DNA from: Candidatus Marinacidobacterales bacterium
Lineage (GTDB): Bacteria > Acidobacteriota > Vicinamibacteria > Marinacidobacterales > SMYC01
DNA: 64,000 bases
Assembly: GCA_965237955.1 (NCBI GenBank)
Contig: OZ250169.1
Span: 3,072,001-3,136,000 of the forward strand
Direction: 5' to 3'
Under the pieces are notes generated by a model, which was given only the letters and a program-made list of their open reading frames with translations, was not told the DNA's origin and did no database searches. The first letter of the stretch is position 1, and each line of letters begins with the position of its first letter. Below, piece by piece: positions 1 to 59,983 of the stretch. The position numbers and the translations under genes are program-made.

Positions 1-302
1 CGCCCCGCAGCCGATTTGAGCCGGCCGTGCGCACCCCCGGTGGGCCTGTCGCCCGCCACCCGCAGCCCAGGGGTCGGAAGCCAGCCCTGCGGCGCGAAAT
101 ACCCTGGATTCTGCGCGGATTCCAAGGGCGTCTAAGCTGCTGATTTGCGGTCTATTTCAAAAGGGCCGAGTTTTGGCTGTGCCTTCTATTTATTCATCCG
201 CGCCGACCCGAACCTGATCGGTCTCCGATCTGCCGGGACTATGCCTGCATGATTTCGTCGTTTGTTCGCGCTCGGCCCTGGGCACGGCCGCAAACACAGA
301 CT

Positions 303-356
303 CTAAGTTGCTGATTTATGGTCTATTTCAAAAGGGCTGAGTTTTGGCACAGGACG
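303..356. repeat. 54-bp dispersed repeat = left end of an rve-integrase IS (representative copy of 19)
   Basis: Consensus CTAAGCTGCTGATTTRTGGTCTATTTCAAAAGGGCCGAGTTTTGGCACAGGACG. Copies start at 132 (truncated), 303, 9889, 20284 (rev, partial), 20547, 29462, 30218 (rev), 30829 (partial), 31861, 37016, 44629, 45697, 47634, 49818, 50351, 56247, ~56567, 59704, 59930. The reverse complement starts CGTCCTGTGCCAAAAC, resembling the IRs of the element at 772-2119. Confidence 0.9.
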
Positions 357-771
357 CCATCGGCTCGACGGCAGCCGACCCAACGACCCTATCCTAAACT
401 TTGTCGCATCATAACTGTTCAGCCAAGCGATCGAACGCGTCGTCAACTCAGACTGACCTAGCTTCTCGCGGCAAACAACGCGTTCTTTCTCAAGCACGTT
501 ATTGCGTCGGTGGTCCGGCGGCGACAGTGTGCAGAATTCGAAGAAGGAGTTGACTCTGGACGACGTAGCCTAAATCAACTTAAAGGAACTGCGTGTCGGA
601 GAATTTCTCAACTTGTAGACGCCGCGGTGCCACTCCCGCGCCCTGCGCCTCGCTTTAGGTCCGCTGGTGTCGGGCGCGCGGCGAGGTCATCGCCTACCGT
701 CACAGTCCGCTCAAGGATTTCGAAGAACTCGATCCTCGGCCACAAGATACTCGTTGCGCAAGAGCAACTCC

Positions 772-2119
772 CGTCGTGTCCAAAAATACAAACGGACTCA
801 AGACCAGCTCGCCGGGACGTTTCGGAATAGACGTATCTACGCTTGATTGGCCAATGGGAGCTAGAATCCTCGGTCATGAGCACACCGGTCCAGCCCTTGA
901 CATTGTTGGTCGTCGCCATCGCTGGTTGGCTCCAGCGTGACCAACAGGCCGCTATGGTCTACTTGCTCGAGGAGAACAAAGTCCTCAAAGCTCGGCTTTG
1001 CGGGAGGAAGCTTCGTCTCACAGACGACGAGCGACGTCGGCTCGCGGTAAAGGGTAAGGCGCTTGGCCGGAAACTCTTGACAGAAGTCGCCGGTATCGTC
1101 ACACCGGAAACCTTGCTGGCTTGGCACCGAAGGCTCATTGCGCGGAAGTGGGACTACAGCGAGCGGCGGAAACAGCCCGGACGGCCCCGGGTCATGGTGG
1201 AGATTAGCGAGCTCGTGGTGGGGATGGCGACGTCGAATCCGAAGTGGGGGTATACACGCATTCGCGGCGCCCTCTCGAATCTCGGCTATACGGTAGCCAG
1301 GAGCACCAGCGCCAATATTCTGCGAGAACATGGCATCGAGCCCGCGCCGGAGCGAGGTGAGCGGACGCCGTGGCGCACGTTTCTCGCCGCCCATTGGGAA
1401 ACCGTTGCGGCGACCGACTTCTTCACCGTCGAGGTCGCCACAGTTCGCAGGCTCGTGACCTACTATGTGCTCGTCGTCATCGAGCTCTCTTCGCGAAAAG
1501 CGCACATTGCCGGAATCACTCCGGGGCCGGATGGCCCGTTCATGATGCAGGTCGGTCGGAATCTCACCGACCCATTCGACGGCTTTCTGCGCGGCAAGCG
1601 ATTCCTCATCCTGGACCGCGACAAGAAGTTCACCACGGAGTTTCGCGATTTGCTTGAGCACGCCGGAACGGACGTCATTCGGCTGCCGCACCGTTCGCCG
1701 AATCTGAACGCTTACGTCGAAAGGTTTGTTTTGTCGATCAAGAGCGAGTGCTTGGAGCGGATGATCTTCTTCAGTGAGCAATCGCTGCGCCGTGCCGTCG
1801 CTGAGTTCATCCATCATTATCACGGAGAGCGCAACCATCAAGGGCTCGGGAACGCGTTGCTCGAAGCGGAAGAATGCGTCGGCAGTCCTCACGAGAAGGT
1901 GCGATGTCGTAAGCGATTGGGCGGCTTGCTCAGCTATTACCACCGCGACGCCGCATAGGAGTTCGGGCGCGCCAGTTGGACGGAACGGATGGTCTGCAGG
2001 AGAGGTCTGCTCGGGGTCGCCTATCGCAGAGCCAGTACTGCGTCGGCTGGTCTCCGCGAGTTTTGAGAACGCCTCTAGGATTCGACCTTGCCGCTCCGTT
2101 CCCGTTTTCGGACAGGACG
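772..2119 (+). mobile_element. IS with single rve/integrase-core transposase (IS3/IS481-related, unclassified)
   Basis: Imperfect IRs CGTCGTGTCCAAAAATAC ... CCGTTTTCGGACAGGACG; degenerate second copy at 60159-61600 has the same boundaries; no TSD visible. Confidence 0.85.
876..1958 (+). CDS. Integrase-core (rve) DDE transposase, ~360 aa
   Basis: N-terminal LxEENxxL coiled coil, [16 protein letters not shown], catalytic motifs ATDFF / LILDRD / YVERFV, HYHGERNHQGLGN. Confidence 0.9.
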   Translation: MSTPVQPLTLLVVAIAGWLQRDQQAAMVYLLEENKVLKARLCGRKLRLTDDERRRLAVKGKALGRKLLTEVAGIVTPETLLAWHRRLIARKWDYSERRKQPGRPRVMVEISELVVGMATSNPKWGYTRIRGALSNLGYTVARSTSANILREHGIEPAPERGERTPWRTFLAAHWETVAATDFFTVEVATVRRLVTYYVLVVIELSSRKAHIAGITPGPDGPFMMQVGRNLTDPFDGFLRGKRFLILDRDKKFTTEFRDLLEHAGTDVIRLPHRSPNLNAYVERFVLSIKSECLERMIFFSEQSLRRAVAEFIHHYHGERNHQGLGNALLEAEECVGSPHEKVRCRKRLGGLLSYYHRDAA

Positions 2120-2419
2120 CCAGCGCATGGTCGTGGCGGCGAGGTTCCAGCGGCTAGTCATTAGCCAGGGCAACCAAAACGGACACCAAGTCGTCGTCGA
2201 ACGACGTCCTGTGCGGTGCCCACCCTCCGTGTCAACATCCCTCCGACGCGAAGGCCATACCGTGAATCCGAAGCGGGTCTACCGACTGTACCCGTGAGGT
2301 CAAAATACTCATCGTGGTGATGGTAGACGACGTACTCCCTAAGCGCATTGTGGATTCGAGCGGTCGTTGGAAAGGTGCAAACTACTGACCCGCTGGGCGT
2401 TCGAGTATTTTTACCAGAC

Positions 2420-2607: not shown

Positions 2608-3783
2608 TCAAGTCAATTGCTTGACTCGGACGACTGACGGCGGGTCAAGTACAAGCAGAGGATTTGGTTTGTTGTCCCAGTGGTCAGGGTCCAGATCTCT
2701 TTGGGACGCGAAGATTACGATTGATCGCCCATCCGCACAATGAGCGCTTGGGTAGACGATTCCGTCGATGTCGAAACTGCCATTGGCCAAGGACCGATGG
2801 CGGAAGTACTCTGTGAGGATCTGTGTCGGAACGTATTCGATGTGTTCTCTCCCGTCGTGTTCGACGGGCTGTGTAATGGCCCGCACGAACTCGCGAAGAA
2901 ACATCAAAGGATCTCTCTCGTCGCGAGGTATAGCAAAAATGCTGGGAACAGAGGGAAGCTTTGTCAGGTCCAGCACATAGAGTTCTCGCGTGTTAGTCCA
3001 TTCGGCGCAGGTCAGAATGTGCTCGCCAGCCGGGAGGTTTGCTGAGACCTCGGCTCGCGCCGTAGCCATGTCGAACGCAGCGTAGAACATGCTGATGCCG
3101 GCAGCGCTCATGCGGTTTGCAATAGCTTCGCTATCCGGCGGGGAGCCGAGAGACTGCCATGTGTTGCAGATTTCAGCTCGGCTGTGCGGGCGGACTCGAA
3201 AAAACCGCGTGGCCACTGGCAGCATTCCTACTAGATTGACCCTCGAAATGATGTCTCGGAGTTCGTCCAGCATTCGCGGAACGGGAATTGTTTCGGGGAA
3301 GTCTTCCTCTTGCTCCGTGGTGTCGAAGAAGTAACGAATCTTGTGTTTTACGGTGTTGCAGAAATCAGTCCAGCTAGCTGTGTAGCGGTCTACTCCGTTC
3401 AGGCGGTACATGTCCAGCTCGCACCACGTCTCATCTCCGATCGATTCGATAATTGCTTCGTTGACAGCCTCGCGGTGGCTCAGCTCGTCGAGGCGATAAG
3501 AGATCAATTCCGAGGTGTCCAATGTGTCACCTAAATAGCCCCCTTCCTCAGAGTCCCACCCGGCTTCGTTTACAGCGTGGTCGTAGTATTGAAAGATCGT
3601 GTCCTTGATGATCTCCATGAAAGTGTCGAATGGCACGCTGTGTCGCCCACGACGGTGACAGAAGGTGCATGGCGAAACGCTTGCTGCACGTTGAATTTGC
3701 TGTTTTAGATAGGGGTCGGAAACGCATTGCGAGCAGATCAGCTGTTCCGAAAAATGCCAGTCCTCTGCTTTGGAAATAGACAT
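2608..3783 (-). CDS. RES-domain protein with Zn-ribbon / HEPN-RES-associated N-terminal domain
   Basis: CxxC...CxxC N-terminus; RES motifs NRMSAAGISMFY, ARAE, EYVPTQILTEYFR, GIVYPS. Confidence 0.85.
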   Translation of the reverse strand: MSISKAEDWHFSEQLICSQCVSDPYLKQQIQRAASVSPCTFCHRRGRHSVPFDTFMEIIKDTIFQYYDHAVNEAGWDSEEGGYLGDTLDTSELISYRLDELSHREAVNEAIIESIGDETWCELDMYRLNGVDRYTASWTDFCNTVKHKIRYFFDTTEQEEDFPETIPVPRMLDELRDIISRVNLVGMLPVATRFFRVRPHSRAEICNTWQSLGSPPDSEAIANRMSAAGISMFYAAFDMATARAEVSANLPAGEHILTCAEWTNTRELYVLDLTKLPSVPSIFAIPRDERDPLMFLREFVRAITQPVEHDGREHIEYVPTQILTEYFRHRSLANGSFDIDGIVYPSAHCADGRSIVIFASQRDLDPDHWDNKPNPLLVLDPPSVVRVKQLT

Positions 3784-4459: not shown

Positions 4460-5282
4460 AGTGGTAAGGCATAACGGATTGCCTTGCGCACGCGGTCCGT
4501 TGGGATGGCGTCTTCGGTGGCAATCTCCTCATAGGTTTTGCCTGCTTTGATTCGGTCGAGCCAGGAGAGAGCGTTTGGCAGTGGAGGTGTCCGCGACGGA
4601 ACGGCAACCCGCCTGTCCGGGTTCCATCCGCGGCGAAGCGTCGCTTGGTGCGCAGTCTCAGACGGTCCGCCTCGGCCTTCACCTGCCGGAGCGTTCCGTG
4701 CTTCCGGTACAGCGCATAGAGCGTCCGGACCGTTTCGGCCTCAGCCTCGTTGATGCGCAGCGTGCGCTCGTCCTTCTCATAGCCGAGCGGTACGCCGCCG
4801 CCTATCCATAGTCCCTTGCGCTTGGAGGCAGCGACCTTATCGCGGATCCGCTCGGCCGTGACCTCGCGTTCGAATTGTGCGAAGGACAGCAGCATATGCA
4901 GCGTCAGTCGTCCCATGCTGGTCGCGGTGTTGAAGGACTGAGTCACCGAGACGAAAACCGCGCCGGCCGCCTCGAGCCGTTCGACGAGCTTTGCAAAGTC
5001 GGAGAGGGAACGGGTCAGCCGGTCGACCTTGTAGAGCACGATCTGCTCGACGAGACCGGCGTCGATGTCGGCGAGCAAGCGCTGCAGGCCCGGGCGCTCC
5101 AGGGTTCCTCCCGAGAGCCCCGCGTCCTCGTAGACAGTCGGCAGCAGCACCCAGCCCTCCGCTTTCTGGCTCGCGACATACGCGGCGCAGGCTTCTCGCT
5201 GCGCATCGAGGGAGTTGAACTCCTGCTCGAGACCCTCTTCCGCGCTCTTTCGCGTATAGATGGCACAGCGGATTTTCTTCAT
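4460..5282 (-). pseudogene. Large serine recombinase, internally deleted copy
   Basis: N-terminal domain nearly identical to 42324-43985; at ~4576 it jumps from GHLHC to the C-terminal region, and is cut next to IS200. Confidence 0.85.
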
Positions 5283-5283
5283 G

Positions 5284-5715: not shown

Positions 5716-5843
5716 CACCGAACGTTCGCTCTTGTGCTCGGTAAAGTCCAGTCTAATCAGAGACTTCCGGGTGCGCAGTTCACTGCCCGTAGCTCGCCCC
5801 GCAGCCGATTTGAGCCAGCCGTGCGCACCACCGGTGGGCCTGT

Positions 5844-9763: not shown

Positions 9764-9967
9764 GTGTGCCTTCTATTTATTCATCCGCGCGCCCCGAACC
9801 TGATCGGTCTCCGATCTGCCGGGACTATGCCTGCATGATTTCGTCGTTTGTTCGCGCTCGGCCCTGGGCACGGCCGCAAACACAGACTCTAAGTTGCTGA
9901 TTTATGGGCTACTTCAAAAGGGCTGAGTTTTGGCACAGGACGGGATCGATTTTTTGCGAAGCACAGC

Positions 9968-10705: not shown

Positions 10706-10716
10706 GCGATTCCTTC

Positions 10717-19749: not shown

Positions 19750-19794
19750 ACTTAGAGGCTCCACTTTCGTGTTTTCCTTTTTCCCTTCCAAAAG

Positions 19795-19976: not shown

Positions 19977-21002
19977 GACCCACTCGTCACGACGCGATGG
20001 ATGCGCAGCTTCGATGGAAGATTTATTAAGAAAGGGGCTTGACTAGAGGAGTCCAGATATGTTGCTACGCAGCATTTGAATGCTAGTGTCAGTTGGCCTG
20101 CCTGTGTCGGCGCACGCCAAATAAGTATGTGACGTGCACACAGAGACATCCTTGAAGGTGAGGCATCGCGTGGTCAGCCCAGCCGGCATCGCAGAAAGAA
20201 CTGCGTCTCTCGAAATCAAGCTCAAACTCTAGCACGAGAACGGGTTACGTGGCAGACACCAACACTTGCTTGCGGAAGCACCGCGTCCTGTGCCAAAACT
20301 CGGCTCTTTTGAAAGACCATGGCTGTAATTTCATGCACCGTGAAGTCTTAGCGTCATTTTACCAACACTTAATGGCGGAAGCACCCATGAGGTCTGTGTG
20401 AGCAGCAGGGCTACCCGATCGAACAACGGCTGCCTGACCAACAGTAGGATTTGCACATGGTACGTCATGATGGATCCGAAGATAACACCCTCGGGCCAGA
20501 CGATTGTAAAGCCCACAGCCCTTGGCACCGTCGCAAAACACAGACGCTAAGCTGCTGATTTATCGGCTATTTCAAGAGGGCCGAGTTTTGGCACAGGACG
20601 GGGAACAGGTTTATTGGCAGACCTATTCTTAGGCCGGCCAAGGAGCCACCGCTACCCCAAATTCAACATCCGGCGGGACATTCCCGTCCATTGGTACAAC
20701 ACGCAACGACTCTTGGAGCCGATCGGAAATGTCGCCCCGGTCGAGTACGAGATGAACTACTATCGATCGCAGGAAGGCTCGCTAGAGATGGCGAGACTCA
20801 ACTAAAGCAGTCTCCGGAAAACCCGGAGCGGTTCACCCGGGGCGGTTCAGTATCAGCAGATTGGCCCGCGGTGGGAAGGGCAAGGAAGTGACGGTCGTCA
20901 AGGGGAAAACCTTGCCGCCAGGTCCGACAAAAGGGACCACCTACAAACTCGTGGACGCGACGAAGAACAAGTCCGGGAGAGGAAAATAGAGGGGTTCGGA
21001 CA

Positions 21003-23658: not shown

Positions 23659-23669
23659 GGAGTAACCCC

Positions 23670-24827: not shown

Positions 24828-24830
24828 GCG

Positions 24831-29222: not shown

Positions 29223-29515
29223 TGCTTCCGCTCCACCGGCTCTCCCGTGTCATCCGGCCAGGCCGCGTTCCCTGCTGCCCACTGGTCGATCTCGCTTTTT
29301 CTGAACCGCCAGGAACCACCAACCTTTAGCTGCTGGCGGTTGACCCAGCCAGAACGAGCAGTAGGAATTGCACGTGGTACGTCATCATGGAACTGAAGAT
29401 AACACCCTCGGCCAGACGATTGTAAAGCCTACGGCCCTTGGCCCGGTCGCAAACACAGACACTAAGCTGCTGATTTATGGTCTATTTCAAAAGGGCCGAG
29501 TTTTGGCACAGGACG

Positions 29516-30156: not shown

Positions 30157-30656
30157 GTTTCAGCAGGACGCCAATTGGAACCTGGCCCTGACAGCACTGC
30201 CCATTCTCGAAGCACCCCGTCCTGTGCCAAAACTCGGCCCTTTCGAAATAGATCATAAATCAGCAGCTTAGCGACTGGGCCAAGGGCCCCTTGGCTTTAC
30301 AGTTACCCCACCCGCGGTCGACCTTCGAGAGCCGCGCCGTTTCACCGGACGGCAGAGGACGGCGAGCTGCTGCCGAAGAGCGACATTGTCAAGAGCCAGT
30401 TCGCGACGAGCCTTGAAGGCGGAGATGAGCGCGCGAACAAACGGCGAAATCAAGCAGGTATGGCGAGAGGCGCGCGCGCTCCAGGGTTTCGAGACGCTGG
30501 TCGATCTTCCCGAAGGCGATCTCGACCGTGCGCGGGCGGGAATCCATGCTGCGCAGGTCCGTTCCAAGTCACTGTAAGCGGCCGTTGAGGTCGTCGATCC
30601 GGGCGTTCAAGCTGGCGTTGACGCCCGCGATCTGTGCTGACAGCAGCCCGGTCACC

Positions 30657-30752
30657 TGTGCTCCGCAAAAAGTCGATCCGGCGTTGATTGCGCGGGTTAG
30701 ACCTACCATAGTCGGCTGCTTTTGGCCGGTTTTCTTTTTTGCGGGTCACAAC
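30657..30752. mobile_element. ~96-bp MITE copy
   Basis: Reverse copy of 17971-18066. Confidence 0.8.
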
Positions 30753-31027
30753 TCCCACAGGAAACGGGGAGAAACAGATAGGCCGCGCCTACGGAGCACC
30801 GCGCCAGCCCTCGACCCTGGCGGGCACAGCCGAGTTTTGGCACAGGACGGGGAGCCGAACGAAGCCGTGCAGCGGCTTTCTTGCTAGCAGGCCTCGAAAG
30901 GATGTCTCTCTTCCCTGGTCCTTCTTTCATATCGAGACACGCTCCACGATGTTGCGAGTGACGTGCTGTCTACGCCGGTCATAGATCTTGGGACGAGGAC
31001 TTTCTCGCGGCCGAGCTTGGTGCGCTT

Positions 31028-31860: not shown

Positions 31861-31952
31861 CTAAGCTGCTGATTTGTGGTCTATTTCAAAAGAGCCGAGT
31901 TTTGGCACAGGACGACGTTACCGTGTTGCTCTGTTCGGAGTAACCCGATTCG

Positions 31953-35538: not shown

Positions 35539-35617
35539 TCCGCCTCCTCCGGCGATCCTTTCCCTGCCGTGCCCGTTTCGAGCAGATCGCCCCATTCCTG
35601 GTATCTGACAACCTTAA

Positions 35618-37012: not shown

Positions 37013-37269
37013 ACACTAAGTTGCTGGTTTATGGCCTATTTCAAAAGGGCCGAGTTTTGGCACAGGACGGGCGCGATCTCTTCCCAACGCTCCAGTTGTG
37101 CGAGCAGCATGTACTGTTGCCAGCGCGCTTTGCCGTCGCCGCCCGATTCGGCATTCCGAAGATCGGCCAAGGCGTGTTCGATGCCGGTTTCCAGGTCGAG
37201 GGACGGCTCATGCCTAGACTCCATCGCTGTCAACTGAGATTGCCAGAAATCCCAGAGGGGTTGTGCTGA

Positions 37270-40991: not shown

Positions 40992-42323
40992 GAATAACAG
41001 CGGCTTCCTGCTGCTCCAGCGTGGTCATTAGCAAGCGTAACGTTTGGGCCGAACGGGCCTGAGCCGACGGTTTCGGAAAATCTTGCAATTTGGACAGAAG
41101 GGCTGATTTCCCAAGAAAGGCCGATCAACAACGGGCCGAAGAGCGACGATGGACGGGATGCTCTCAAGCCTTGCCGTATCCTGGTGGATACAAACTCCGA
41201 GGCATCCGAGGCAAGTGAGGGTATCAATGAAGCCCAGGCACACCTGGACCAGAACGTGCTAGCCCGCTACGCCACGGTAGCGCCGGCCTCGATTCTGGGC
41301 CTCGCGGGAGGCCTCTTTTCCGCTGCCGCACGGCCCCCGGTCAGCGCCCGCTCCCCCCTTTGGCGCAAACGTGGCACTCGAAAATCGCGATTAGAGACCA
41401 ATACCGAAAATGAGGCCTGTTCAGCCCTTCTAGCGCGTCTCTGGTGCCACCTACCCCTGCAAAACCCCGCCAACCGCGCGGAAAATCTCACCCGTCTCTG
41501 CAGTGCCACAATTGGCCAGACTGAGTGGCGGATGGTGCAGTCTCGAGCCATCCGGTCTCGGCAAAAGGTATTTTGGCAATTTTGGGAGTCAGGATCGAAC
41601 TTTTGGCCGTGCGCGTGGTTGGGGCAATGTAGCGAAAACTCAGAGAAGCCCTGATGCCCACAGCGTTCTATCCTGTTTTGTTACAGTGACTTAACGGAAG
41701 CCACCACGTGCTGGTCCCCGCACATCTCATCGCGGGTGCTCGTTCCGAGCCGGAATCGAATTTGCTTCAATCAAATTTCTTGTACGGCAATCTCAACCTC
41801 CTGGACGCTTGAAAGAGGGCCGTGTCGTAAACCCTCCGGAGGCGGCTCCGACCGTTACTCATTGTCGCAAAAGGCTTTACGTCTCATCAGCGAATGTTCG
41901 TCGACGGGAACATCTTTCCGGCTATCGCAGTCAGGAGGCTCGAGTGGAGCTTCCGATTCTTGGCTGGAAACGATCAGAAACAGAGCTAAACAGGCCATTA
42001 ACGTGCAATTTGGTGCGATTTTGGGGCTTATCGGGCCGTTTTTCTACTTAATCGCGCAGATAATGAGAAGACGCTTAACGCCTAGATCGCGCCTGAGGAG
42101 AAGGCGAATAGCGGAATTCGAATTGGCCAAACCTCGAATTCATCCAGCGGAGTTTTACGGAGGAAACGAAGATGACTCCGCAGACGGTCCAGTACAAGGA
42201 GCTATCCGAGTCTGGAAACCATGACAGGGAATTTGGGCCAGTTTGAGGCTGATTGGTGGAGGCCAGTGTCGGAGAGCAGCTTGCTGCTAACCGAGCCCAT
42301 TCACGAAGTGGGCGCTGGCAGGC

Positions 42324-43985
42324 TCACAGCGTTTTGACGAGCACTCGCTGTTTCTCCCAATCGTCGGGAAGCGGATGATGCAAGAGGTAGCTCGAGGTCA
42401 GCCCAACGGGCTGGCGGCCTTCGACAATGGCGCGGACGATGTCGGGAGCCAGGAAGGCATAACGGATTGCCTTGCGCACGCGGTCCGTTGGGATGGCGTT
42501 TTCGGTTGCAATCTGCTCATAGGTTTTGCCTGCTTTGATTCGGTCGAGCCAGGAGAGGGCGTTTCTGATATTGCGCAGGAGTGTGCGGTCGACGGATTTC
42601 GTGGGGTTGCCCAGAACGAGCTTGGTCTCGACGCCGCGTCGACGCAAGCGGAACGGTGCGAGGATGCGGAGTGCATCGTCGCGAATGCGTTCGGGTCCCA
42701 TAGAGAGGCAAGCAGCGAACGCATCGCGGTCGAGCAGGATGGACACAGAGCCGGGGCTGATGTCGACCCGCCGGATAAGACGGAGCAGGGGGGCTGCCGA
42801 GGCACTATCATTGTTACTACCGGAACACAGCCCGTCTAAAAAGCGACGCACCGAGGCGAGCTCTTGCATCGTCGGAGTGTGGATCAACGAGGCCGAGAAG
42901 GTCGTGGCATCCACATGCTGTCGGATGAGATGCACGACGGTCTGTTCCAGCATCGGGGCGGGCAGTCGCCAGCCGGAGAGGTCCTTTTGGCCACTGTGCT
43001 GGATGAGGCGCCGGGAGACGTAGTAGCGGAGCCGTTGCCCGTTTTTCTTTTTGGTGTGGCTCGGCGTCAGCCGGTCCCCGGTCTCGTCGAAGAGCTTGCC
43101 TGCCAGTGGGGAAGGGGCGGCACGGCCCTTCGTCGTGCGTCTCCTTGGTTTGGCAGCCCCTGCCTGCAGCTGCGTTTGGACCGCGTCCCAGAGCTCCGGA
43201 GCAATGATCGATGGATGCTGGCCCTCGTACACACGCCTCTGGTGCCGGATGCGGCCGGCGTAGAGAGGATTGGTCAGCAGGCAGTGGAGGTGTCCGCGAC
43301 GGAACGGCAGCCCGCCCGTTCGGGTTCCATCCGCGGTGAAGCGTTGCTTGGTACGCAGTCTCAGACGGTCCGCCTCGGCCTTCACCTGCCGGAGCGTTTC
43401 GTGCTTTCGGTACAGCGCATAGAGCGTCCGGACCGTTTCGGCCTCAGCCTCGTTGATGCGCAGCGTGCGCCCGTCCTTCTCATAGCCTAGCGGTACGCGG
43501 CCGCCCATCCATAGTCCCTTGCGCTTGGAGGCAGCGACCTTATCGTGGATCCGCTCGGCCGTGACCTCGCGTTCGAATTGTGCGAAGGACAGCAGCATAT
43601 GCAGCGTCAGTCGTCCCATGCTGGTCGCGGTGTTGAAGGACTGAGTCACCGAGACGAAAACCGCGCCGGCCGCCTCGAGCCGCTCGACGAGCTTCGCAAA
43701 GTCGGAGAGGGAACGGGTCAGCCGGTCGACCTTGTAGACCACAATCTGGTCGACGAGACCTGCGTCGATGTCGGCGAGCAAGCGCTGGAGGCCCGGGCGC
43801 TCCAGGGTTCCTCCCGAGAGCCCCGCGTCCTCGTAGACGGTTGGCAGCAGCACCCAGCCCTCCGCTTTCTGGCTCGCGACATACGCGGCGCAGGCTTCTC
43901 GCTGCGCATCGAGGGAGTTGAACTCCTGTTCGAGACCCTCTTCCGCACTCTTTCGCGTATAGATGGCACAGCGGATCTTCTTCAT
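42324..43985 (-). CDS. Large serine recombinase, ~553 aa
   Basis: RCAIYTRKS (catalytic Ser), DAGLSGG..RPGL, KVDRLTRS, FEREVTAER, PLGY, NPLYAG, YEGQHPSII. Confidence 0.92.
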   Translation of the reverse strand: MKKIRCAIYTRKSAEEGLEQEFNSLDAQREACAAYVASQKAEGWVLLPTVYEDAGLSGGTLERPGLQRLLADIDAGLVDQIVVYKVDRLTRSLSDFAKLVERLEAAGAVFVSVTQSFNTATSMGRLTLHMLLSFAQFEREVTAERIHDKVAASKRKGLWMGGRVPLGYEKDGRTLRINEAEAETVRTLYALYRKHETLRQVKAEADRLRLRTKQRFTADGTRTGGLPFRRGHLHCLLTNPLYAGRIRHQRRVYEGQHPSIIAPELWDAVQTQLQAGAAKPRRRTTKGRAAPSPLAGKLFDETGDRLTPSHTKKKNGQRLRYYVSRRLIQHSGQKDLSGWRLPAPMLEQTVVHLIRQHVDATTFSASLIHTPTMQELASVRRFLDGLCSGSNNDSASAAPLLRLIRRVDISPGSVSILLDRDAFAACLSMGPERIRDDALRILAPFRLRRRGVETKLVLGNPTKSVDRTLLRNIRNALSWLDRIKAGKTYEQIATENAIPTDRVRKAIRYAFLAPDIVRAIVEGRQPVGLTSSYLLHHPLPDDWEKQRVLVKTL

Positions 43986-43986
43986 G

Positions 43987-44418
43987 TTAGGCCTTGCGCT
44001 TGGGCGTGAGACCGAAAAAGCGTGGTCCTGACCAGTGGGTGCCGGTGATTCGCTTTGTGATGGCGGTGAGGGACGGATAGGTTTTGCCATCGAACCGATA
44101 GCCGTTGTCGATTACCTCGACCTGGTAGGTCCGGCCATTCCACTCGCGGACGAGATGGGTGCCGGCAGAAACGGACCCTGCGGGAGCGCCGGAGCTTGGT
44201 GTCTCGTTCGCCATGGCAGCCAGAGCGCGCCGGGTTGTGGCCGAATGCCAGCCAAGGGTCCGGCACTGGCGTTCGTACGCAAGAACGCGGCGCATGAAAA
44301 CGCGAGAGAGCGAGCTTGGAGGAGCAGCCCCAAAGGTCTGCTCCCAGACCCGCCGCAAGCTGGCGAAGTCCAAACCGTCCAGAACGACGTTCCGCCCAAC
44401 CCCTGTATCCTGCGGCAT
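43987..44418 (-). CDS. DUF2924-family protein
   Basis: As 5284-5715. Confidence 0.85.
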   Translation of the reverse strand: MPQDTGVGRNVVLDGLDFASLRRVWEQTFGAAPPSSLSRVFMRRVLAYERQCRTLGWHSATTRRALAAMANETPSSGAPAGSVSAGTHLVREWNGRTYQVEVIDNGYRFDGKTYPSLTAITKRITGTHWSGPRFFGLTPKRKA

Positions 44419-45113
44419 CACCGAACGTTCGCTCTTGTGCTCGATAAAGTCCAGTCTAATGAGGGACTTCCGGGTGCGCAGTCCGTTGCTCGTAGCTCGC
44501 CCCGCAGCCGATTTGAGCCAGCCGTGCGCACCCCCGGTGGGCCTGTCGCTCGCCACCCGCAGCCCAGGGGTCATAAGCCAGCCCTGCGGCGCGAAATACA
44601 CTCGATTCTGCGCGGATTCCAAGGGCGTCTAAGCTGCTGATTTGTGGTCTATTTCAAAAGGGCCGAGTTTTGGCACAGGACGGGGTGGCGGATAAGCGAA
44701 ACCTCCTCGGGCTTTCTCGGAAAAAGCTGGAATCATGCGCGACGCCCGAAGCTGACAAGTGGTGGGGTTGTCTGCGAGCGTTGAATGGTGCGGCCAGTCT
44801 AGATGCCTTAACGCTCCAAGTTCATAAGACTCCGGTGGCGTCGTCGGGTCGAACGGCACGAAGCAGCCAAGCGATGGCAAGTCCTAACCACGCAATCAAC
44901 GCTGGATCGACTTTTTGCGGAGCACAGGTTACCCAGCTTCTTCAGAGTATCCTGCGCGGTGTTTCTCGCTTTGATTCGCTCTCCTTCCGCGCCGTCGCGT
45001 ACGTCGCGTGTTGGGTTCCCGCGACAAGAGTCACCCGCACGGATCCCGTCACGACCACTTCTTCGCGAGTGAAACGGAGTGCGCCGTCTCCGGATTTCCA
45101 GTCGAGAACGCGG

Positions 45114-45569: not shown

Positions 45570-45845
45570 GACGCCCAGCCAGCTAGAACGAGCAGTAGGA
45601 ATTGCACGTGGTACGTCATCATGGATCTGAAGATAACACCCTCGGGCCAGACGATTGTAAAGCCTACGGCCCTTGGTCCGGTCGCAAACACAGACACTAA
45701 GCTGCTGATTTATGGTCTATTTCAAAAGGGCCGAGTTTTGGCACAGGACGGGGAATTGAGATAAACGAATAGGGGAATGTCAGAGCAGCACGTGAGGAGT
45801 TCCATTCGAGCACACGAATGGTTTTCTGCCTCTCCGTTCAAAAGA

Positions 45846-47408: not shown

Positions 47409-47687
47409 GTGTCGTTCTCCGATCGATGGCGTGGTCTACGGGAGGCGATGCGGCCCCAATAGATCCCGGCCCGTGAAGTCTCGCCCAGTAGACGTTACGT
47501 AAATACTCTAAAGGATTTCTGTCGGGCCAGCGAGCGGCACGGCAGTATCGCGCGTCAGCACGCCACGGAGAGAGGTCGGAAGCCAGCCCTGCGGCGCGAA
47601 ATACCCTCGATTCTGCGCGGATTCCAAGGGCGTCTAAGCAGCTGATTTGTGGTCTATTTCAAAAGGGCTGAGTTTTGGCACAGGACG

Positions 47688-49264: not shown

Positions 49265-49516
49265 ATGGCAAAAGCGCGAGTGTTGACGCGGTTGGAACTA
49301 GCCGAGCATTTGGGTGTCGATAAACAGATGGTAACGAAATGGGAGCGGTCTGGGATGCCGGTCCACACCAGAGGGCGCGGCGTGGCGTCTCAATTCCGTC
49401 TGGGGGAGGTCCGGGCGTGGCTAAGGGTGCGGGAAGCGAAGGCCAAAGCGGCGGAGAAGGCGAAGGTGCGGGAAGCCAAAGCGTCAGAGAAGGCGAAGAA
49501 GACAGCGAAGGGTTAG
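49265..49516 (+). CDS. Phage terminase-small-subunit (Nu1)-like / excisionase-type wHTH, probably truncated
   Basis: RBS GGAGG; LTRLELAEHLGV....VTKWERSGMP.....G....F....V..W; abuts a DUF2924 fragment at ~49515. Confidence 0.55.
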   Translation: MAKARVLTRLELAEHLGVDKQMVTKWERSGMPVHTRGRGVASQFRLGEVRAWLRVREAKAKAAEKAKVREAKASEKAKKTAKG

Positions 49517-50404
49517 CCCCAAAGGTTTGCTCCCAGACCCGCCGTAAGCTGGCGAAGTCCAAACCGTCCAAAACGACGTTCCGGCCAATCCCTGTATCCT
49601 GCGGCATCACCGAACGTTCGCTCTTGTGCTCGATAAAGTCCAGTCTAATGAAGGACTTCCGGGTGCGAAGTTCACTGCCCGCAGCTCGCCCCGCAGCCGA
49701 TTTGAGCCAGCCGTGCGCACCCCCGGTGGGCCTGTCGCTCGCCACCCGCAGCCCAGGGGTCGGAAGCCAGCCCTGCGGCGCGAAATACCCTCGATTCTGC
49801 GCGGATTCCAAGAGCGTCTAAGCTGCTGATTTGTGGTCTATTTCAAAAGGGCCGAGTTTTGGCACAGGACGGGGAGCGGCGCACCTCGCTCACGGCCGTA
49901 CGAAGTCATGGCACGCTGGTACGATGTCGACGGCAAGCCGTCGCTGTTCATCTTCGGTCCCGCCGCTCAGACCCCGTTTGGCCTAATCTCCGATCCCCAG
50001 AAGGGCAAGGTAGGGGCCATCCTGCGGGAGGTATGTCGGAATGGACGATAGACGATGTTTCGTTCAGTTCTCGCACCCCGGGGGCGTTGTTGCACCGCTC
50101 TTGGCTGAGAGCGAAATCTGCCTATCGTGGTGGCCGGGGTCGGAGAGCAGATGATGCAAGAGGTAGCTTGAGGTCAGCCCAACAGGCTGGCGGCCGTCGA
50201 CAATGGCACGGACGATGTCGGGTGCCAGGAAAGCATAGCGGATTGCCTCGATATTCGCTCTCGACTAGGTGGTCATCTGCATGGTGACGACCCGCCCGCC
50301 CAAGACAATTGTAGAGCCTACGGCCCTTGGCCCAGTCGCAAACACAGACACTAAGCTGTTGATTTATCAGCTATTTCAAAAGGGCTGAGTTTTGGCACAG
50401 GACG

Positions 50405-50820: not shown

Positions 50821-50882
50821 CTCATCGATAGCACGTTTCAAGGCAACTCTAGGTCGTACCCGGAAGGAGGACGATCTAGGAA

Positions 50883-53191: not shown

Positions 53192-53940
53192 GCGAGCGAG
53201 GGACCACAGCGTCGATGCGATAAAAACGGGTGAAACCGCCAAACCCGGGGCCAGACGATGCGGCGCCAAAACGACGCGCGAGAATGCCTCAGGAAGCGTC
53301 TTCTCGAGCCAGGCCATACCCCAGCAACCCCCCGAAACCAGCCCCACATCGCCCGGGGTTCGGCCGCGGCAGGTCGCTGCCTACGGGAGCGGGAAGGTCG
53401 CTTCGCGTCTTTCCTTACGCCCGCTCCCTCCGGCACCGACCTGCCGCCCCTTGCTACACAACACGCAGGTAAGATAGGTTCACGTTTTCAATCAGTGGGA
53501 AGGAGGTCACCCAACACTTCATCGCTTCGATGAGCGTTCGGCTTCACCGGATTCGCTGTTCAGCTTGCTCTGGATTCGGCGTTCACGATGGCTGGAATAC
53601 GCACCGGATTTCGCTCTCAGCCAGAGCGGTGCAACAACGCCGGCTTATCGGGACGTTTTTGCGCTTAATCGTGCAGACAATGAGAAGACGCTCTACGCCT
53701 AGATCGCGCCTGAGGAGAAGGCGAATAGCGGAATTCGAATTAGCCAAACCTCGAATTCATCCAGCGGAGTTTTACGGAGGAAACGAAGATGACTCCGCAG
53801 ACGGTCCAGTACAAGGAGCTATCCGAGTCTGGAAACCATGACAGGGAATTTGGGCCAGTTTAAGTCTGATTGGTGGAGGCCAGTGTCGGAGAGCAGCTTG
53901 CTGCTAACCGAGGCCATTCACGAAGTGGGCGCTGGCAGGC

Positions 53941-55603
53941 TCACAGCGTTTTGACGAGCACTCGCTGTTTCTCCCAATCGTCGGGAAGCGGATGATGCAA
54001 GAGGTAGCTCGAGGTCAGCCCAACGGGCTGGCGGCCTTCGACAATGGCGCGGACGATGTCGGGAGCCAGGAAGGCATAACGGATTGCCTTGCGCACGCGG
54101 TCCGTTGGGATGGCGTTTTCGGTGGCAATCTGCTCATAGGTTTTGCCTGCTTTGATTCGGTCGAGCCAGGAGAGGGCGTTTCTGATATTGCGCAGGAGTG
54201 TGCGGTCGACGGATTTCGTGGGGTTGCCCAGAACGAGCTTGGTCTCGACGCCGCGTCGACGCAAGCGGAACGGTGCGAGGATGCGGAGTGCATCCTCGCG
54301 AATGCGGTCAGGTCCCATAGACAGGCAATCAGCGAACGCATTGCGGTCGAGCAGGATGGACACAGAGCCGGGGCTGATATCGACCTGCCGGATAAGACGG
54401 AGCAGGGGGGCTGCCGAGGCACTATCATCATTAGTATCGGAACACAGCCCGTCTAAAAAGCGACGCACCGAGGCGAGCTCTTGCATCGTCGGAGTGTGGA
54501 TCAACGAGGCCGAGAAGGTCGTGACATCCACATGCTGTCGGATGAGATGCACGACGGTCTGTTCCAGCATCGGGGCCGGGCAGTCGCCAGCCGGAGAGGT
54601 CCTTTTGACCACTGTGCTGGATGAGGCGCCGGGAGACGTAGTAGCGGAGCCGTTGCCCGTTTTTCTTTTTGGTGTGGCTCGGCGTCAGCCGGTCCCCGGT
54701 CTCGTCGAAGAGCTTGCTTGCCAGTGGGGAGGGGGCTGCACGGCCCTTCGTCGTGCGTCTCCTTGGTTTGGCAGCCCCTGCCTGCAGCTGTGTTTGGACC
54801 GCGTCCCAGAGCTCCGGAGCAATGATCGATGGATGCTGGCCCTCGTAGACACACCTCTGGTGCCGGATGCGGCCGGCGTAGAGAGGATTGGTCAGCAGGC
54901 AGTGGAGGTGTCCGCGACGGAACGGCAGCCCGCCCGTTCGGGTTCCATCCGCGGTGAAGCGTTGCTTGGTACGCAGTCTCAGACGGTCCGCCTCGGCCTT
55001 CACCTGCCGGAGCGTTTCGTGCTTTCGGTACAGCGCATAGAGCGTCCGGACCGTTTCGGCCTCAGCCTCGTTGATGCGCAGCGTGCGCCCGTCCTTCTCA
55101 TAGCCTAGCGGTACGCGGCCGCCCATCCATAGTCCCTTGCGCTTGGAGGCAGCGACCTTATCGCGGATCCGCTCGGCCGTGACCTCGCGTTCGAATTGTG
55201 CGAAGGACAGCAGCATATGCAGCGTCAGTCGTCCCATGCTGGTCGCGGTGTTGAAGGACTGAGTCACCGAGACGAAAACCGCGCCGGCCGCCTCGAGCCG
55301 CTCGACGAGCTTTGCAAAGTCGGAGAGGGAACGGGTCAGCCGGTCGACCTTGTAGACCACAATCTGCTCGACGAGACCTGCGTCGATGTCGGCGAGCAAG
55401 CGCTGCAGGCCCGGGCGCTCCAGGGTTCCTCCCGAGAGCCCCGCGTCCTCGTAGACGGTTGGCAGCAGCACCCAGCCCTCCGCTTTCTGGCTCGTGACAT
55501 ACGCGGCGCAGGCTTCTCGCTGCGCATCGAGGGAGTTGAACTCCTGTTCGAGACCCTCTTCCGCACTCTTTCGCGTATAGATGGCACAGCGGATCTTCTT
55601 CAT
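53941..55603 (-). pseudogene. Large serine recombinase, +1 frameshift at ~54576
   Basis: GGGGCCGGGC versus GGGGCGGGC in the intact copies. Confidence 0.88.
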
Positions 55604-55604
55604 G

Positions 55605-56036
55605 TTAGGCCTTGCGCTTGGGCGTGAGACCGAAAAAGCGTGGTCCAGACCAGTGGGTGCCGGTGATTCGCTTTGCGATGGTAGTGAGGGACGGATAGGT
55701 TTTGCCATCGAACCGATAGCCGTTGTCGATTACCTCGACCTGGTAGGTCCGGCCATTCCACTCGCGGACGAGATGGGTGCCGGCAGAAACGGACCCTGCG
55801 AGAGCGCCGGGGCTTGGTGTCTCGTTCGCCATGGCAGCCAGAGCGCGCCGGGTTGCGGCCGAAAGCCCGCCATGGGTCCGGCACTGGCGTTCGTGCAAGA
55901 GAACGCGGCGCAGGAAAACACGCGAGAGCGAGCTTGGAGGAGCAGCCCCAAAGGTCTGCTCCCAGACCCGCCGTAAGCTGGCGAAGTCCAAACCGTCCAA
56001 AACGACGTTCCGGCCAACCCCTGTATCCTGCGGCAT
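55605..56036 (-). CDS. DUF2924-family protein
   Basis: As 5284-5715. Confidence 0.85.
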   Translation of the reverse strand: MPQDTGVGRNVVLDGLDFASLRRVWEQTFGAAPPSSLSRVFLRRVLLHERQCRTHGGLSAATRRALAAMANETPSPGALAGSVSAGTHLVREWNGRTYQVEVIDNGYRFDGKTYPSLTTIAKRITGTHWSGPRFFGLTPKRKA

Positions 56037-57491
56037 CACCGAACGTTCGCTCTTGTGCTCGATAAAGTCCAGTCTAATGAGGGACTTCCGGGTGCGCAGT
56101 TCACTGCCCGTAGCTCGCCCCGCAGCCGATTTGAGCCAGCCGTGCGCACCCCCGGTGGGCCTGTCGCTCGCCACCCGCAGCTCTGGGGTCGGAAGCCAGC
56201 CCTGCGGCGCGAAATACCCTCGATTTTGCGCGGATTCCAAGGGCGTCTAAGCTGCTGATTTGTGGTCTATTTCAAAAGAGCCGAGTTTTGGCACAGGACG
56301 GGGTAGCCGAAGCACGGCCGACCAGTTGACCTGACCCCACGGTTAGTACCACGTTGTATCTCAGTAATTCGGCGCCGTATCCCATGGAAAAGCATGGACC
56401 ATTTGTTGCGCCGTCCACTCGGCAGAAGGATGTTCGGTGACATCGAGATACGGCGACGGTCGTGGCGAAGGACGATGAAGACGGACAGAACTCTGAAGGT
56501 TGCGGTCGGCAAAGTGAAAAAGTCGAGCGACACCAAGTCTTTTTGGCCCGGTCGCAAACCCAAACACAAAGCTACTGATTTATGGTCTATTTCAAAGGGG
56601 CCGAGTTTTGGCACAGGACGGGGTGGCGGATGGTGCAGGTTGGAGCTATCCGGTCTCGGCAAAAGGCGGTCCAGCTTTTGGCGGAAATCCTCAACCAGAA
56701 AAGCAAGTGGAAATTCAGGAGGTTTCGAGTTTCGCGCATTTCTTGACTTTTTTGACGCGTACACAGGTTTTGCGAGAAGGCTGTTTTACGCCCTCTCGGG
56801 TTTCAACCATGATGCCAATTTCGTTCCATCCTATTCCCCTACAGTGATTTAACGGCCTCCGTCACGTGCTGGTCCCCGCACGCATTATCGACGGGTGGTC
56901 GTTCGAGCCGGAATTTTAATTGGCTTTAATCAGATTTTCTATACGGCAATTTCAACCTCCTGGACGCCTGAAAGAAGGCCGTGTCGTGAACCCTCCGGCG
57001 CCACCGCCGACCGTTACTCATTGTTATAAAAAGCTTTACGTCTCATCAGCGAATATTCGTCGACGGGAACATCTTTCCAGCTATCGCAGTCGGGAGGCTT
57101 GAGTGGGGGCGAGTGGAGCTTCCGGTTCTTGGCTGGAAACGATCAGAAACAGAGCAAAACAGGTCCTTAGCGTGCAATTTGGGGCGATTTTGGGGCTTAT
57201 CGTGTCGTTTTTGCACTTAATCGCGCAGACAATGAGAAGACGCTCAACGCCTAGATCGCGCCTGAGGAGAAGGCAAATGGCGGAATTCGAATTGGCCAAA
57301 CCTCGAATTCATCCAGCGGAGTTTTATGGAGGAAACGAAGATGACTCCGCAGACGGTCCAGTACAAGGAGCTATCCGAGTCTGGAAACCATGACAGGGAA
57401 TTTGGGCCAGTTTGAGGCTGATTGGTGGAGGCCAGTGTCGGAGAGCAGCTTGCTGCTAACCGAGCCGATTCACGGAGTGGGCGCTGGAGGC

Positions 57492-59153
57492 TCACAGCGT
57501 TTTGACGAGCACTCGCTGTTTCTCCCAATCGTCGGGAAGCGGATGATGCAAGAGGTAGCTCGAGGTCAGCCCAACGGGCTGGCGGCCTTCGACAATGGCG
57601 CGGACGATGTCAGGAGCCAGGAAGGCATAACGGATTGCCTTGCGCACGCGGTCCGTTGGGATGGCGTCTTCGGTGGCAATCTCCTCATAGGTTTTGCCTG
57701 CTTTGATTCGGTCGAGCCAGGAGCGGGCGTTTCTGATATTGCGCAGGAGTGTGCGGTCGACGGATTTCGTGGGGTTGCCCAGAACGAGCTTGGTCTCGAC
57801 GCCGCGTCGGCGCAAGCGGAACGGTGCGAGGATGCGGAGTGCATCCTCGCGAATGCGGTCAGGTCCCATAGAGAGGCAAGCAGCGAACGCATTGCGGTCG
57901 AGCAGGATGGACACAGAGCCAGGGCTGATGTCGACCCGCCGGATAAGACGGAGCAGGGGGGCTGCCGAGGCACTATCATCATTACTGCCGGAACACAGCC
58001 CGTCTAAAAAGCGACGCACCGAGGCGAGCTCTTGCATCGTCGGAGTGTGGATCAACGAGGCCGAGAAGGTCGTGGCATCCACATGCTGTCGGATGAGATG
58101 CACGGCGGTCTGTTCCAGCATCGGGGCGGGCAGTCGCCAGCCGGAGAGGTCCTTTTGGCCACTGTGCTGGATGAGGCGCCGGGAGACGTAGTAGCGGAGC
58201 CGTTGCCCGTTTTTCTTTTTGGTGTGGCTCGGCGTCAGCCGGTCCCCGGTCTCGTCGAAGAGCTTGCCTGCCAGTGGGGAGGGGGCTGCACGGCCCTTCG
58301 TCGTGCGTCTCCTTGGTTTGGCAGCCCCTGCCTGCAGCTGCGTTTGGACCGCGTCCCAGAGCTCCGGAGCAATGATCGATGGATGCTGGCCCTCGTAGAC
58401 ACGCCTCTGGTGCCGGATGCGGCCGGCGTAGAGAGGATTGGTCAGCAGGCAGTGGAGGTGTCCGCGACGGAACGGCAGCCCGCCCGTTCGGGTTCCATCC
58501 GCGGTGAAGCGTTGCTTGGTACGCAGTCTCAGACGGTCCGCCTCGGCCTTCACCTGCCGGAGCGTTTCGTGCTTTCGGTACAGCGCATAGAGCGTCCGGA
58601 CCGTTTCGGCCTCAGCCTCGTTGATGCGCAGCGTGCGCCCGTCCTTCTCATAGCCGAGCGGTACGCGGCCGCCCATCCATAGTCCCTTGCGCTTGGAGGC
58701 AGCGACCTTATCGCGGATCCGCTCGGCCGTGACCTCCCGCTCGAATTGTGCGAAGGACAGCAGCATATGCAGCGTCAGTCGTCCCATGCTGGTCGCGGTG
58801 TTGAAGGACTGAGTCACCGAGACGAAAACCGCGCCGGCAGCCTCGAGCCGCTCGACGAGCTTTGCAAAGTCGGAGAGGGAACGGGTCAGCCGGTCGACCT
58901 TGTAGACCACAATCTGCTCGACGAGACCTGCGTCGATGTCGGCGAGCAAGCGCTGCAGGCCCGGGCGCTCCAGGGTTCCTCCCGAGAGCCCCGCGTCCTC
59001 GTAGACGGTTGGCAGCAGCACCCAGCCCTCCGCTTTCTGGCTCGCGACATACGCGGCGCAGGCTTCTCGCTGCGCATCGAGGGAGTTGAACTCCTGTTCG
59101 AGACCCTCTTCCGCACTCTTTCGCGTATAGATGGCACAGCGGATCTTCTTCAT
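57492..59153 (-). CDS. Large serine recombinase, intact copy
   Basis: Near-identical to 42324-43985. Confidence 0.92.
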   Translation of the reverse strand: MKKIRCAIYTRKSAEEGLEQEFNSLDAQREACAAYVASQKAEGWVLLPTVYEDAGLSGGTLERPGLQRLLADIDAGLVEQIVVYKVDRLTRSLSDFAKLVERLEAAGAVFVSVTQSFNTATSMGRLTLHMLLSFAQFEREVTAERIRDKVAASKRKGLWMGGRVPLGYEKDGRTLRINEAEAETVRTLYALYRKHETLRQVKAEADRLRLRTKQRFTADGTRTGGLPFRRGHLHCLLTNPLYAGRIRHQRRVYEGQHPSIIAPELWDAVQTQLQAGAAKPRRRTTKGRAAPSPLAGKLFDETGDRLTPSHTKKKNGQRLRYYVSRRLIQHSGQKDLSGWRLPAPMLEQTAVHLIRQHVDATTFSASLIHTPTMQELASVRRFLDGLCSGSNDDSASAAPLLRLIRRVDISPGSVSILLDRNAFAACLSMGPDRIREDALRILAPFRLRRRGVETKLVLGNPTKSVDRTLLRNIRNARSWLDRIKAGKTYEEIATEDAIPTDRVRKAIRYAFLAPDIVRAIVEGRQPVGLTSSYLLHHPLPDDWEKQRVLVKTL

Positions 59154-59154
59154 G

Positions 59155-59586
59155 TTAGGCCTTGCGCTTGGGCGTGAGACCGAAAAAGCGTGGTCCAGAC
59201 CAGTGGGTGCTGGTGATTCGCTTTGCGATGGTAGTGAGGGACGGATAGGTTTTGCCATCGAACCGATAGCCGTTGTCGATTACCTCGACCTGGTAGGTCC
59301 GGCCATTCCACTCGCGGACGAGATGGGTGCCGGCAGAAACGGACCCTGCGAGAGCGCCGGAGCTTGGTGTCTCGTTCGCCATGGCAGCCAGAGCGCGCCG
59401 GGTTGCGGCCGAAAGCCCGCCATGGGTCCGGCACTGGCGTTCGTGCAAGAGAACGCGGCGCAGGAAAACACGCGAGAGCGAGCTTGGAGGAGCAGCCCCA
59501 AAGGTCTGCTCCCAGACCCGCCGTAAGCTGGCGAAGTCCAAACCGTCCAAAACGACGTTCCGGCCAACCCCTGTATCCTGCGGCAT
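59155..59586 (-). CDS. DUF2924-family protein
   Basis: As 5284-5715. Confidence 0.85.
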   Translation of the reverse strand: MPQDTGVGRNVVLDGLDFASLRRVWEQTFGAAPPSSLSRVFLRRVLLHERQCRTHGGLSAATRRALAAMANETPSSGALAGSVSAGTHLVREWNGRTYQVEVIDNGYRFDGKTYPSLTTIAKRITSTHWSGPRFFGLTPKRKA

Positions 59587-59757
59587 CACCGAACGTTCGC
59601 TCTTGTGCTCGATAAAGTCCAGTCTAATGAGGGGCTTCCGGGTGCGCAGTCCGCTGCCCGCAGCTCGCCCCGCAGCCCAAGGGTCGGCGGATTCCAAGGG
59701 CGTCTAAGCTGCTGATTTGTGGTCTATTTCAAGAGGGCCGAGTTTTGGCACAGGACG

Positions 59758-59983
59758 CGGTTCTCCTCTTGCTGGTAGTCGATCACATCCTGCTGCTGGC
59801 GGTTGACCCAGCCAGCTAGAACGAGCAGTAGGAATTGCGCGTGGTACGTCATCATAGATCTGAAGATAACACCCTCGGGCCAGACGATTGTAAAGCCTAC
59901 GGCCCTTGGCCCGGTCGCAAACACAGACACTAAGCTGCTGATTTATGGTCTATTTCAAAAGGGCCGAGTTTTGGCACAGGACG
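59758..59983 (-). mobile_element. Longest left-end remnant of the second rve-IS (54-bp end plus transposase start)
   Basis: Minus strand MTYHAQFLLLVLAGWVNRQQQDVIDYQQEENR is homologous to the N-terminus of 876-1958; similar remnants at ~20440-20600, ~29330-29515, ~45575-45750, ~50290-50404. Confidence 0.8.

Follow-up and report, generated by a model that had tools for sequence, protein, structure and literature searches.

Why should one 64,000-nucleotide stretch of DNA hold nineteen copies of a short repeat, most of them pointing the same way and nearly all stopping at the same tip? The stretch (hereafter the window) comprises positions 3,072,001 to 3,136,000 of contig OZ250169.1 from Candidatus Marinacidobacterales bacterium (assembly GCA_965237955.1). 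A sequence-only reading had proposed that the repeats are orphan left ends of a one-ended mobile element that joins GGGW-like sites and makes no target-site duplication (TSD). We find that they are the left and right terminal inverted repeats of a 1,428-bp insertion sequence (IS), of its miniature inverted-repeat transposable elements (MITEs) and of cargo units. We call this subtype A, and its sister subtypes B, D, D2 and F. The oddities of the window (polarity, orphan left ends, unusual tips) mostly dissolve genome-wide; the one-sided target survives. The distinctive result is an asymmetric target of which one half is kept, a pattern that survives controls and extends across phyla.

The A element has inverted repeats of 102 bp at 95% identity and a single open reading frame (ORF) of 356 amino acids. 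No complete element of this subtype had been recognized from the window, but its own genome holds 22 full copies and stretches from relatives hold another 22; the ORF is intact in 30 of the 43 full copies checked. MITEs of approximately 317 and 395 bp are bounded by A ends, as is a cargo unit of 3.4-3.8 kb that carries DUF2924 and large serine recombinase genes and accounts for approximately 80 ends in the genome. This module is found at G000:C1:608119-611598 and in the window at 4466-5846, 41231-44682, 53642-56300 and 56617-59757. Among 233 ends in the two main end clusters, 101 are left ends, 66 are right ends and 66 are too short to tell. The orphan-left-end model is therefore rejected: two-ended MITEs, full elements and right ends are all present, and in the window itself partner ends occur in a MITE (20284-20600), a right end (50404) and a pair of facing tips (30218/30849).

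Several details of the earlier description are borne out. The tip GGCACAGGACG is matched 21 times in the window when one mismatch is allowed, where shuffled sequence would give 1.9; 18 exact 11-nt tips and the tip-less copy at 132-176 make up the nineteen copies, 17 of them in the same orientation, while one-mismatch matches at 30361 and 39970 are not ends. Recounting gave GGGA or GGGT at 11 of 18 flanks and A or T as the fourth base at 17 of 18. The length is not a uniform 54 bp, the copy at 30849 having approximately 21 nt and others 78-232 nt. Exact cuts of adjacent genes hold for the IS903-like element at 50404 and for the left part of an A element at 59757; the NOV_C (DUF3883) ORF overlaps the end at 29515, and the supposed IS1 transposase at 47687 gives weak rve_3/IS1 matches only. 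The 876-1958 protein, taken for the cognate transposase, belongs to a sister subtype with its own element (772-2119).

Polarity is real within the window and absent from the genome, where 466 A ends divide 239 to 227 between the two directions. The window skew, 16:2 by the pattern used here, is the strongest when 76 overlapping 64-kb windows, each holding 12 ends or more, are compared (for 17:2, binomial p=0.0007, uncorrected). It arises from co-directional cargo units and nested truncations, much of it from co-directional copies of the DUF2924/recombinase unit. A ends occupy 52 of the 163 50-kb bins of the genome and are present in 10 of 31 genomes searched, its own included. Junction hot spots recur, one site having been taken 13 times by ends of differing interior type, and identical junction sites recur between genomes.

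Flanks were compared across the 8.13-Mb genome, whose islands served as background for base frequencies, and across approximately 2 Mb of stretches from eight relatives picked for high copy density. At 985 of 993 A ends the first flanking base is not T and the second is G or C (V-S; island background 0.46), and 745 join GG (background 0.07). The one-sided flank thus holds genome-wide and in eight other genomes, with a motif broader than first described: GGGW occurs at 462 of the 993 ends, and the rule is V-S-R-W. GG outnumbers CC approximately 17:1 (332:20). Left and right ends share one flank logo, and all eight relatives show it.

To see what the ends had joined, 844 ends were examined and 248 non-redundant targets recovered, each with at least two concordant uninterrupted homologues. 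Their bases run A/G, C/G, N, then V, S, R, W: the joining site is 5'-RSN^VS(RW)-3', and only the right-hand half is kept. The rule on the lost side differs by subtype (A-C-N in A; A-G-N in B and D2). A two-ended staggered cut should leave both halves of its target, and therefore the logo should mirror about some centre. We mirrored it at every stagger from -3 to 12, with chi-squared per degree of freedom (chi2/df) as misfit and two co-resident IS903-like elements and one co-resident IS3 as controls. The controls do mirror, at stagger 9 for both IS903-like elements (2.4 and 1.1) and at stagger 3 for IS3 (0.8). The A target has no symmetric stagger (lowest chi2/df 22.9), and the lowest value for B is 7.5; normalized per site, the misfit is 9.2 for A versus 1.6-2.7. 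The 8-bp symmetry of IS26 is likewise absent (mirror correlation -0.06 at k=8). A second test was mapping-free, using filled flanks only, and gave smallest mismatches of 0.56 (A), 0.36 (B) and 0.45 (D) versus 0.10-0.14 for controls. At 176 ends of complete elements, +1 is T in none and +3 is A in 36. Targeting of pseudo-ends was considered and rejected, as no end-like motif was found in the 844 flanks and there is no signal past +6.

TSDs were sought as direct repeats flanking complete elements, against permutation, and by mapping flanks to uninterrupted homologues. For 87 complete A elements, repeats of 1, 2, 3, 4 and 5 bp numbered 21, 8, 3, 0 and 0 (permutation expectation 20.6, 8.4, 2.4, 0.01 and 0.01), and no direct repeat of 4-30 bp was found. 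Comparison of filled and empty sites, proposed earlier as a check, gave simple insertions for 0 of 78 traceable A elements, that is, those for which one flank or both could be mapped to a homologue lacking the interruption; every one sits at a rearrangement junction, its flanks deriving from different places. In the D subtype, 27 elements have four 3-bp repeats (2.8 expected) and no 4-bp repeat, and for three of the four with a 3-bp repeat the upstream context they map to is a different one. Wherever repeats of 2 or 3 bp could be traced, they proved coincidental. Of 16 traceable copies of the IS3 control, 5 still have the 3-bp TSD. Among 320 pairs none had a long flanking duplication, and a noisy search for end pairs that between them retain the two halves of a single target showed no preferred gap. 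In one MITE, 37 bp of the target have been replaced. At G000:C1:3660277-3660552, a 276-bp two-ended derivative has overlapping IS110 DNA on both sides (offset -326), for which a duplication and two nearby copies are candidates.

What enzyme makes such junctions? The A transposase and the 876-1958 protein are 54.5% identical and both have rve_3 and helix-turn-helix (HTH) domains. Acidic residues D178, D244/D246 and E279 are invariant across 28 sequences, and a moderate structure model (pLDDT 66), used for fold class only, resembles IstA, TnsB and retroviral integrases. By that model the protein is predicted to be an RNase H-fold D-D-E enzyme; a PDB sequence search found no relative. Hidden Markov models place the group near IS481 and IS3 and inside neither, because all four proteins tested fall far under the curated cut-offs: 92.5 (B), 99.9 (A), 98.9 (Leptospira) and 118.9 (Streptomyces) bits versus 224 for IS481 (NF033577), and 75-87 bits versus 160 for IS3 (NF033516). 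A single ORF with HTH and rve D-D-E domains agrees with IS481; the orfA/orfB frameshift of IS3 is absent, there being one 356-aa ORF. No IS6 model matched among the transposases tested, leaving an IS6-like reading of the tip without protein support. IS481 tips are TGT..ACA and its target duplication is 4 bp or more. The tips seemed at first to break with TG..CA, yet they prove to be CG/TG variants: A and B have CGT, while D, D2, F and most Streptomyces copies have TG, and sister subtypes include TGT tips, so that the CG tip is a one-base variant. HUH elements (IS91/ISCR, IS200/IS605) show a one-sided short target, no TSD and apparent single-end activity; the analogy once drawn with them is superficial, the A enzyme having the RNase H-type D-D-E fold and its element long inverted repeats.

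The family is large, with 4,988 representatives at 50% identity (E<=1e-30), and all of at least 8,000 scored candidates (8,000/8,000) counted to it. Genes from Streptomyces, Bradyrhizobium and Leptospira plasmids are included, annotated only as 'integrase core domain-containing protein'. A literature search, with most subscription journals and ISfinder outside its coverage, found no description of the family. This IS group is real and abundant and appears not to have been described before; it is akin to IS3 and IS481 but, by the tests run, belongs to neither.

Plasmids of isolates carry the flank bias as well. At Streptomyces loci +1 is T in 0 of 37 distinct ends. For two Streptomyces copies, when one flank is followed into its uninterrupted homologue the sequence beyond is unrelated, and the second flank lies in different records; no adjacent-flank record, as expected of an empty allele, was present among the matches listed for these plasmid loci. 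The relative on Leptospira interrogans plasmids, 30% identical, lies behind a helix-turn-helix gene in 9 of 10 loci. Nine Leptospira plasmids, some with internal duplications that enter the count, have 54 end-like matches (up to four mismatches), all co-directional with the transposase and none inverted. Fifteen distinct junctions have a purine at +1 in 15/15 and G/C at +2 in 14/15, and at several the right end is joined to copies of DNA upstream of the element. The Leptospira copies look naturally single-ended. On their 5' side, an alignment by eye shows a short end in direct orientation, then three bases, then an inverted remnant without a tip, an arrangement that hints at a circle junction of the IS911 kind. 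At L224-L233 and L264 (rep_cluster_216), a small ORF, a helix-turn-helix gene, the family transposase and a single intact end form a module that is repeated; these array-like modules have short direct mini-ends between cargo genes.

From the junction statistics, and given the observed anatomy, flank rule, asymmetry and unpaired flanks, we infer that single-end, single-strand attack, resolved into adjacent deletions, probably made the tip junctions. The transposase would nick one tip (..GACG-3' or ..CA-3') and join the nicked 3' strand to a point further out on the same strand, immediately 5' of V-S. This would be like step I of IS911 and IS2, except that the recipient would be non-end DNA and not a partner end. 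Replication of the bridged strand would yield element|GG.. with loss of the intervening DNA. Repetition at both ends would erase the scar of first insertion, cut neighbouring elements, and leave surplus ends and local co-directional runs; two ends would capture the cargo between them, and the family would be confined to dispensable islands. The earlier idea of a non-canonical one-end reaction thus survives in part: truncated neighbours and the one-sided rule fit it, while the reading as lone left ends of a one-ended element fails, since this genome has left and right ends alike and a single flank rule applies to both. Precedents are described: single-strand, asymmetric transfer by one end in IS2 step I (PMC3299598), one-end strand transfer by IS26 (PMC10433875) and, in the long-term evolution experiment (LTEE), IS150 insertions followed by growing adjacent deletions (PMC11708052; PMC8860574 gives background on IS3 deletions). 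The further proposal that there is no paste-in step, so that every new copy would enter through a pair of single-end transfers, each independent of the other and at its own RSN^VS site, is one we hold as a possibility but doubt. The IS150 case and a de novo IS481 copy described without TSD at a 60-kb duplication junction (PMC11708052) mean that both routes to a first insertion have precedent.

Several observations weigh against single-end attack. Loss of TSDs is not peculiar to this family: the two-ended IS903-like controls lose theirs too, with simple insertions in 0/68 and 1/53 copies (1/121), so the earlier claim of no TSD stands genome-wide and fails as to specificity. The kept bases of D2 and F agree with a symmetric R-S-Y core of 3 bp (0.18 and 0.16) about as closely as the controls agree with their own symmetric targets, and F is nearly symmetric overall (chi2/df 2.3-2.6), although the -2/-3 preferences of both are not mirrored. 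In Streptomyces +2 is G/C in only 27 of 37 ends. The targets come largely from repeated elements, and as the genomes compared have these elements in common, counts are not independent. No intermediates were seen. A tip-C-tip junction occurs once in 339 outward-facing pairs, and no right-end-to-left-end joint was among the joints listed for public contigs of six runs, which drop rare forms on assembly and so cannot show absence. That sole tip-C-tip junction, at L054:1451 (G021), has a B-type and an A-type tip with a single C between.

Could a two-ended reaction account for the same junctions? An IS3-type copy-out/paste-in element with a short, probably 3-bp, TSD might have had its first scars overwritten by frequent adjacent deletions, these coming from a two-ended, orientation-biased complex. 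IS481 and IS3 are the nearest models, the mirror correlation is highest at 3 bp in A and F, with 3 bp nearly tied for first place in D2, and the Leptospira 5' side (mini right end, 3 nt, tip-less inverted remnant) is like a circle junction. IS150 in the LTEE shows deletions growing beside insertions (PMC11708052), and the IS903-like controls are without TSDs too. We nevertheless think it unlikely, with 1-5 bp repeats at permutation level in 87 A and 27 D elements and the co-resident IS3 still keeping its 3-bp TSD; moreover, given the 17:1 excess of GG over CC, both ends of nearly every copy, the 30 with intact ORFs included, would need overwriting. Replicative copy-in of the IS6/IS26 or IS903 kind, with joint end transfer and with intramolecular events and recombination splitting the target halves, is quite improbable. 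IS26 is described as making adjacent deletions and inversions by such a route (PMC10433875), and IS903-like elements in the same islands lose paired flanks likewise. That route predicts equal halves, as in the symmetric control logos, whereas the mirror half is nearly absent from the A family; the asymmetry largely refutes it, and no IS6 model matches.

The remaining two explanations place the cause outside the transposition reaction. Elements could be pasted into pre-existing double-strand breaks with the target uncut, as proposed for IS481 and IS5 from de novo copies described without TSD at a 60-kb duplication and a 62-kb deletion, respectively (PMC11708052), and all traceable A elements do lie at rearrangement junctions. 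Random breaks would not yield a 99% rule at +1/+2, lost-side preferences or rules specific to subtype (A-C-N versus A-G-N), and long flanking duplications are absent from 320 pairs; we judge this very improbable. Misassembly at a high-copy repeat, with chimeric junctions as its product, is hardly credible. The genome is repeat-rich and none of the public contigs examined spans the whole element, but eight further assemblies yield an identical logo, the same junction sites are found in more than one genome, tip joints bearing GG/CC letters occur in contigs from independent runs, and the bias is also seen in plasmids of Streptomyces and Leptospira isolates.

Several known systems resemble the A family in part. 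IS481 offers the best model match, a single ORF with HTH and rve D-D-E domains, TGT-like tips in sister subtypes and, in SBW25, a copy that arose de novo at a rearrangement junction with no TSD (PMC11708052). It differs in score (93-119 bits versus 224), in the CG tips of A and B, and in that four resident SBW25 copies have a putative 4-bp TSD, partly questioned by the authors of that report (PMC11708052). Step I of IS3 elements (IS911, IS2) shares one donor end and asymmetric single-strand transfer (PMC3299598), and IS150 shares adjacent deletions that grow over time (PMC11708052), with a possible 3-nt spacing as in IS3. Here, however, scores are 75-87 bits versus 160, there is no orfA/orfB frameshift, the attacked DNA is not end-like and no TSD-bearing paste-in product was found for the A family, while the co-resident IS3 keeps such products. 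IS26/IS6 and IS903 elements share frequent adjacent deletions, cargo between copies and, in the targeted mode of IS26, single-end action. The IS26 target is described as 8 bp and symmetric, and its single-end mode as directed at another IS copy where A ends join a short motif (PMC10433875); the IS903-like control has a symmetric 9-bp target. Telomeric TnsBC/Tn7-like elements are DDE elements found with a single end; they are described as needing TnsC and two bridged ends and as making 5-bp TSDs (bioRxiv 10.1101/2024.11.13.623437).

The A ends and related features of the window are collected in Table 1. The two IS903-like types (window 6729-7812 and 12730-13814) have 125 and 207 ends in the genome, are mostly complete and have almost always lost their 9-bp TSD. 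Approximately 70% of IS903-like ends lie in complete copies; of the A ends, full elements account for 9% and MITEs for 7%. IS110, IS21 and IS1-like elements lie at 18618-20100, 50841-53300 and 14566-15633, the last with an unusual rve-type C-terminus and a score below the NCBIfam cut-off. An outer-membrane beta-barrel gene is duplicated (15861-16814 and 61967-62920) beside B-subtype remnants. Defence-island genes occupy 2608-3783, 9968-12471, 21003-27908, 31953-35595 and 37468-40913, and include an XhoI-type endonuclease with methylase, an SbcCD-like pair, an AAA ATPase with subtilase, a type I restriction subunit R with YgjP, and a HEPN/RES protein.

Table 1. A ends, sister-subtype elements and cargo units in the 64-kb window
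Position	Strand	Feature	Flank
132..176	+	A-type end without tip, recombinase cargo unit; cut by sister TGTGCC-tip end	
273..356	+	A-type end, 84 bp	CCAT
772..2119	+	Complete B-subtype element, 1,348 bp, tips CGTCGTGTCC/CGTCCTGTCC, transposase 876-1958	
9859..9942	+	A-type end, 84 bp	GGAT
20284..20600	.	Complete 317-bp MITE, two inverted A ends, no TSD	CGGT and GGGA (outward)
29329..29515	+	A left end and transposase 5' part (~190 bp), abuts NOV_C (DUF3883) gene	GGGT
30218..30849	.	Inward-facing A tips (30218; 21-nt remnant ending 30849), sister-subtype fragments between	
31861..31914	+	A-type end, 54 bp	ACGT
37016..37069	+	A-type end	GGCG
41231..44682	-	DUF2924 and large serine recombinase cargo unit; A end at 44682; far end cut	GGGT
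45574..45750	+	A left end and transposase start, 177 bp	GGGA
47571..47687	+	Cargo-unit-type A end, 117 bp	GGGT
49515..49871	+	Cargo-unit-type A end, 357 bp	GGGA
50245..50404	+	A right end, 160 bp, joined into IS903-like element	CCAT
53642..56300	-	Second recombinase cargo unit; A end at 56300	GGGT
56543..56620	+	A end, 78 bp, joined to GGGTGGCGGATG hot spot within next cargo unit	
56617..59757	-	Third recombinase cargo unit; A end 59757 joined into A-element left part	CGGT
59752..59983	+	A left end and transposase 5' part, 232 bp	GGGA
60159..61600	+	Second B-subtype element, interrupted and frameshifted	

In these genomes the A family appears restricted to dispensable islands, and it appears to be one of the chief agents by which islands erode and cargo is shuffled. 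Retention of only one half of an asymmetric target is a signature, legible in sequence, that separates single-end attack from two-ended transposition, and it bears on why some IS copies described as lacking TSDs are found where large rearrangements centre (PMC11708052). With intact transposases and close to 1,000 junctions available, the single-end question is directly testable. Single-end attack on neighbouring DNA would be an unusual working mode for the DDE enzyme class. If there is indeed no paste-in step, each transposition would be a deletion, duplication or fusion, one intact end would suffice for DNA rearrangement, as is suggested by the modules with a single end on Leptospira plasmids, and the family would be a DDE counterpart of HUH one-ended transposition.

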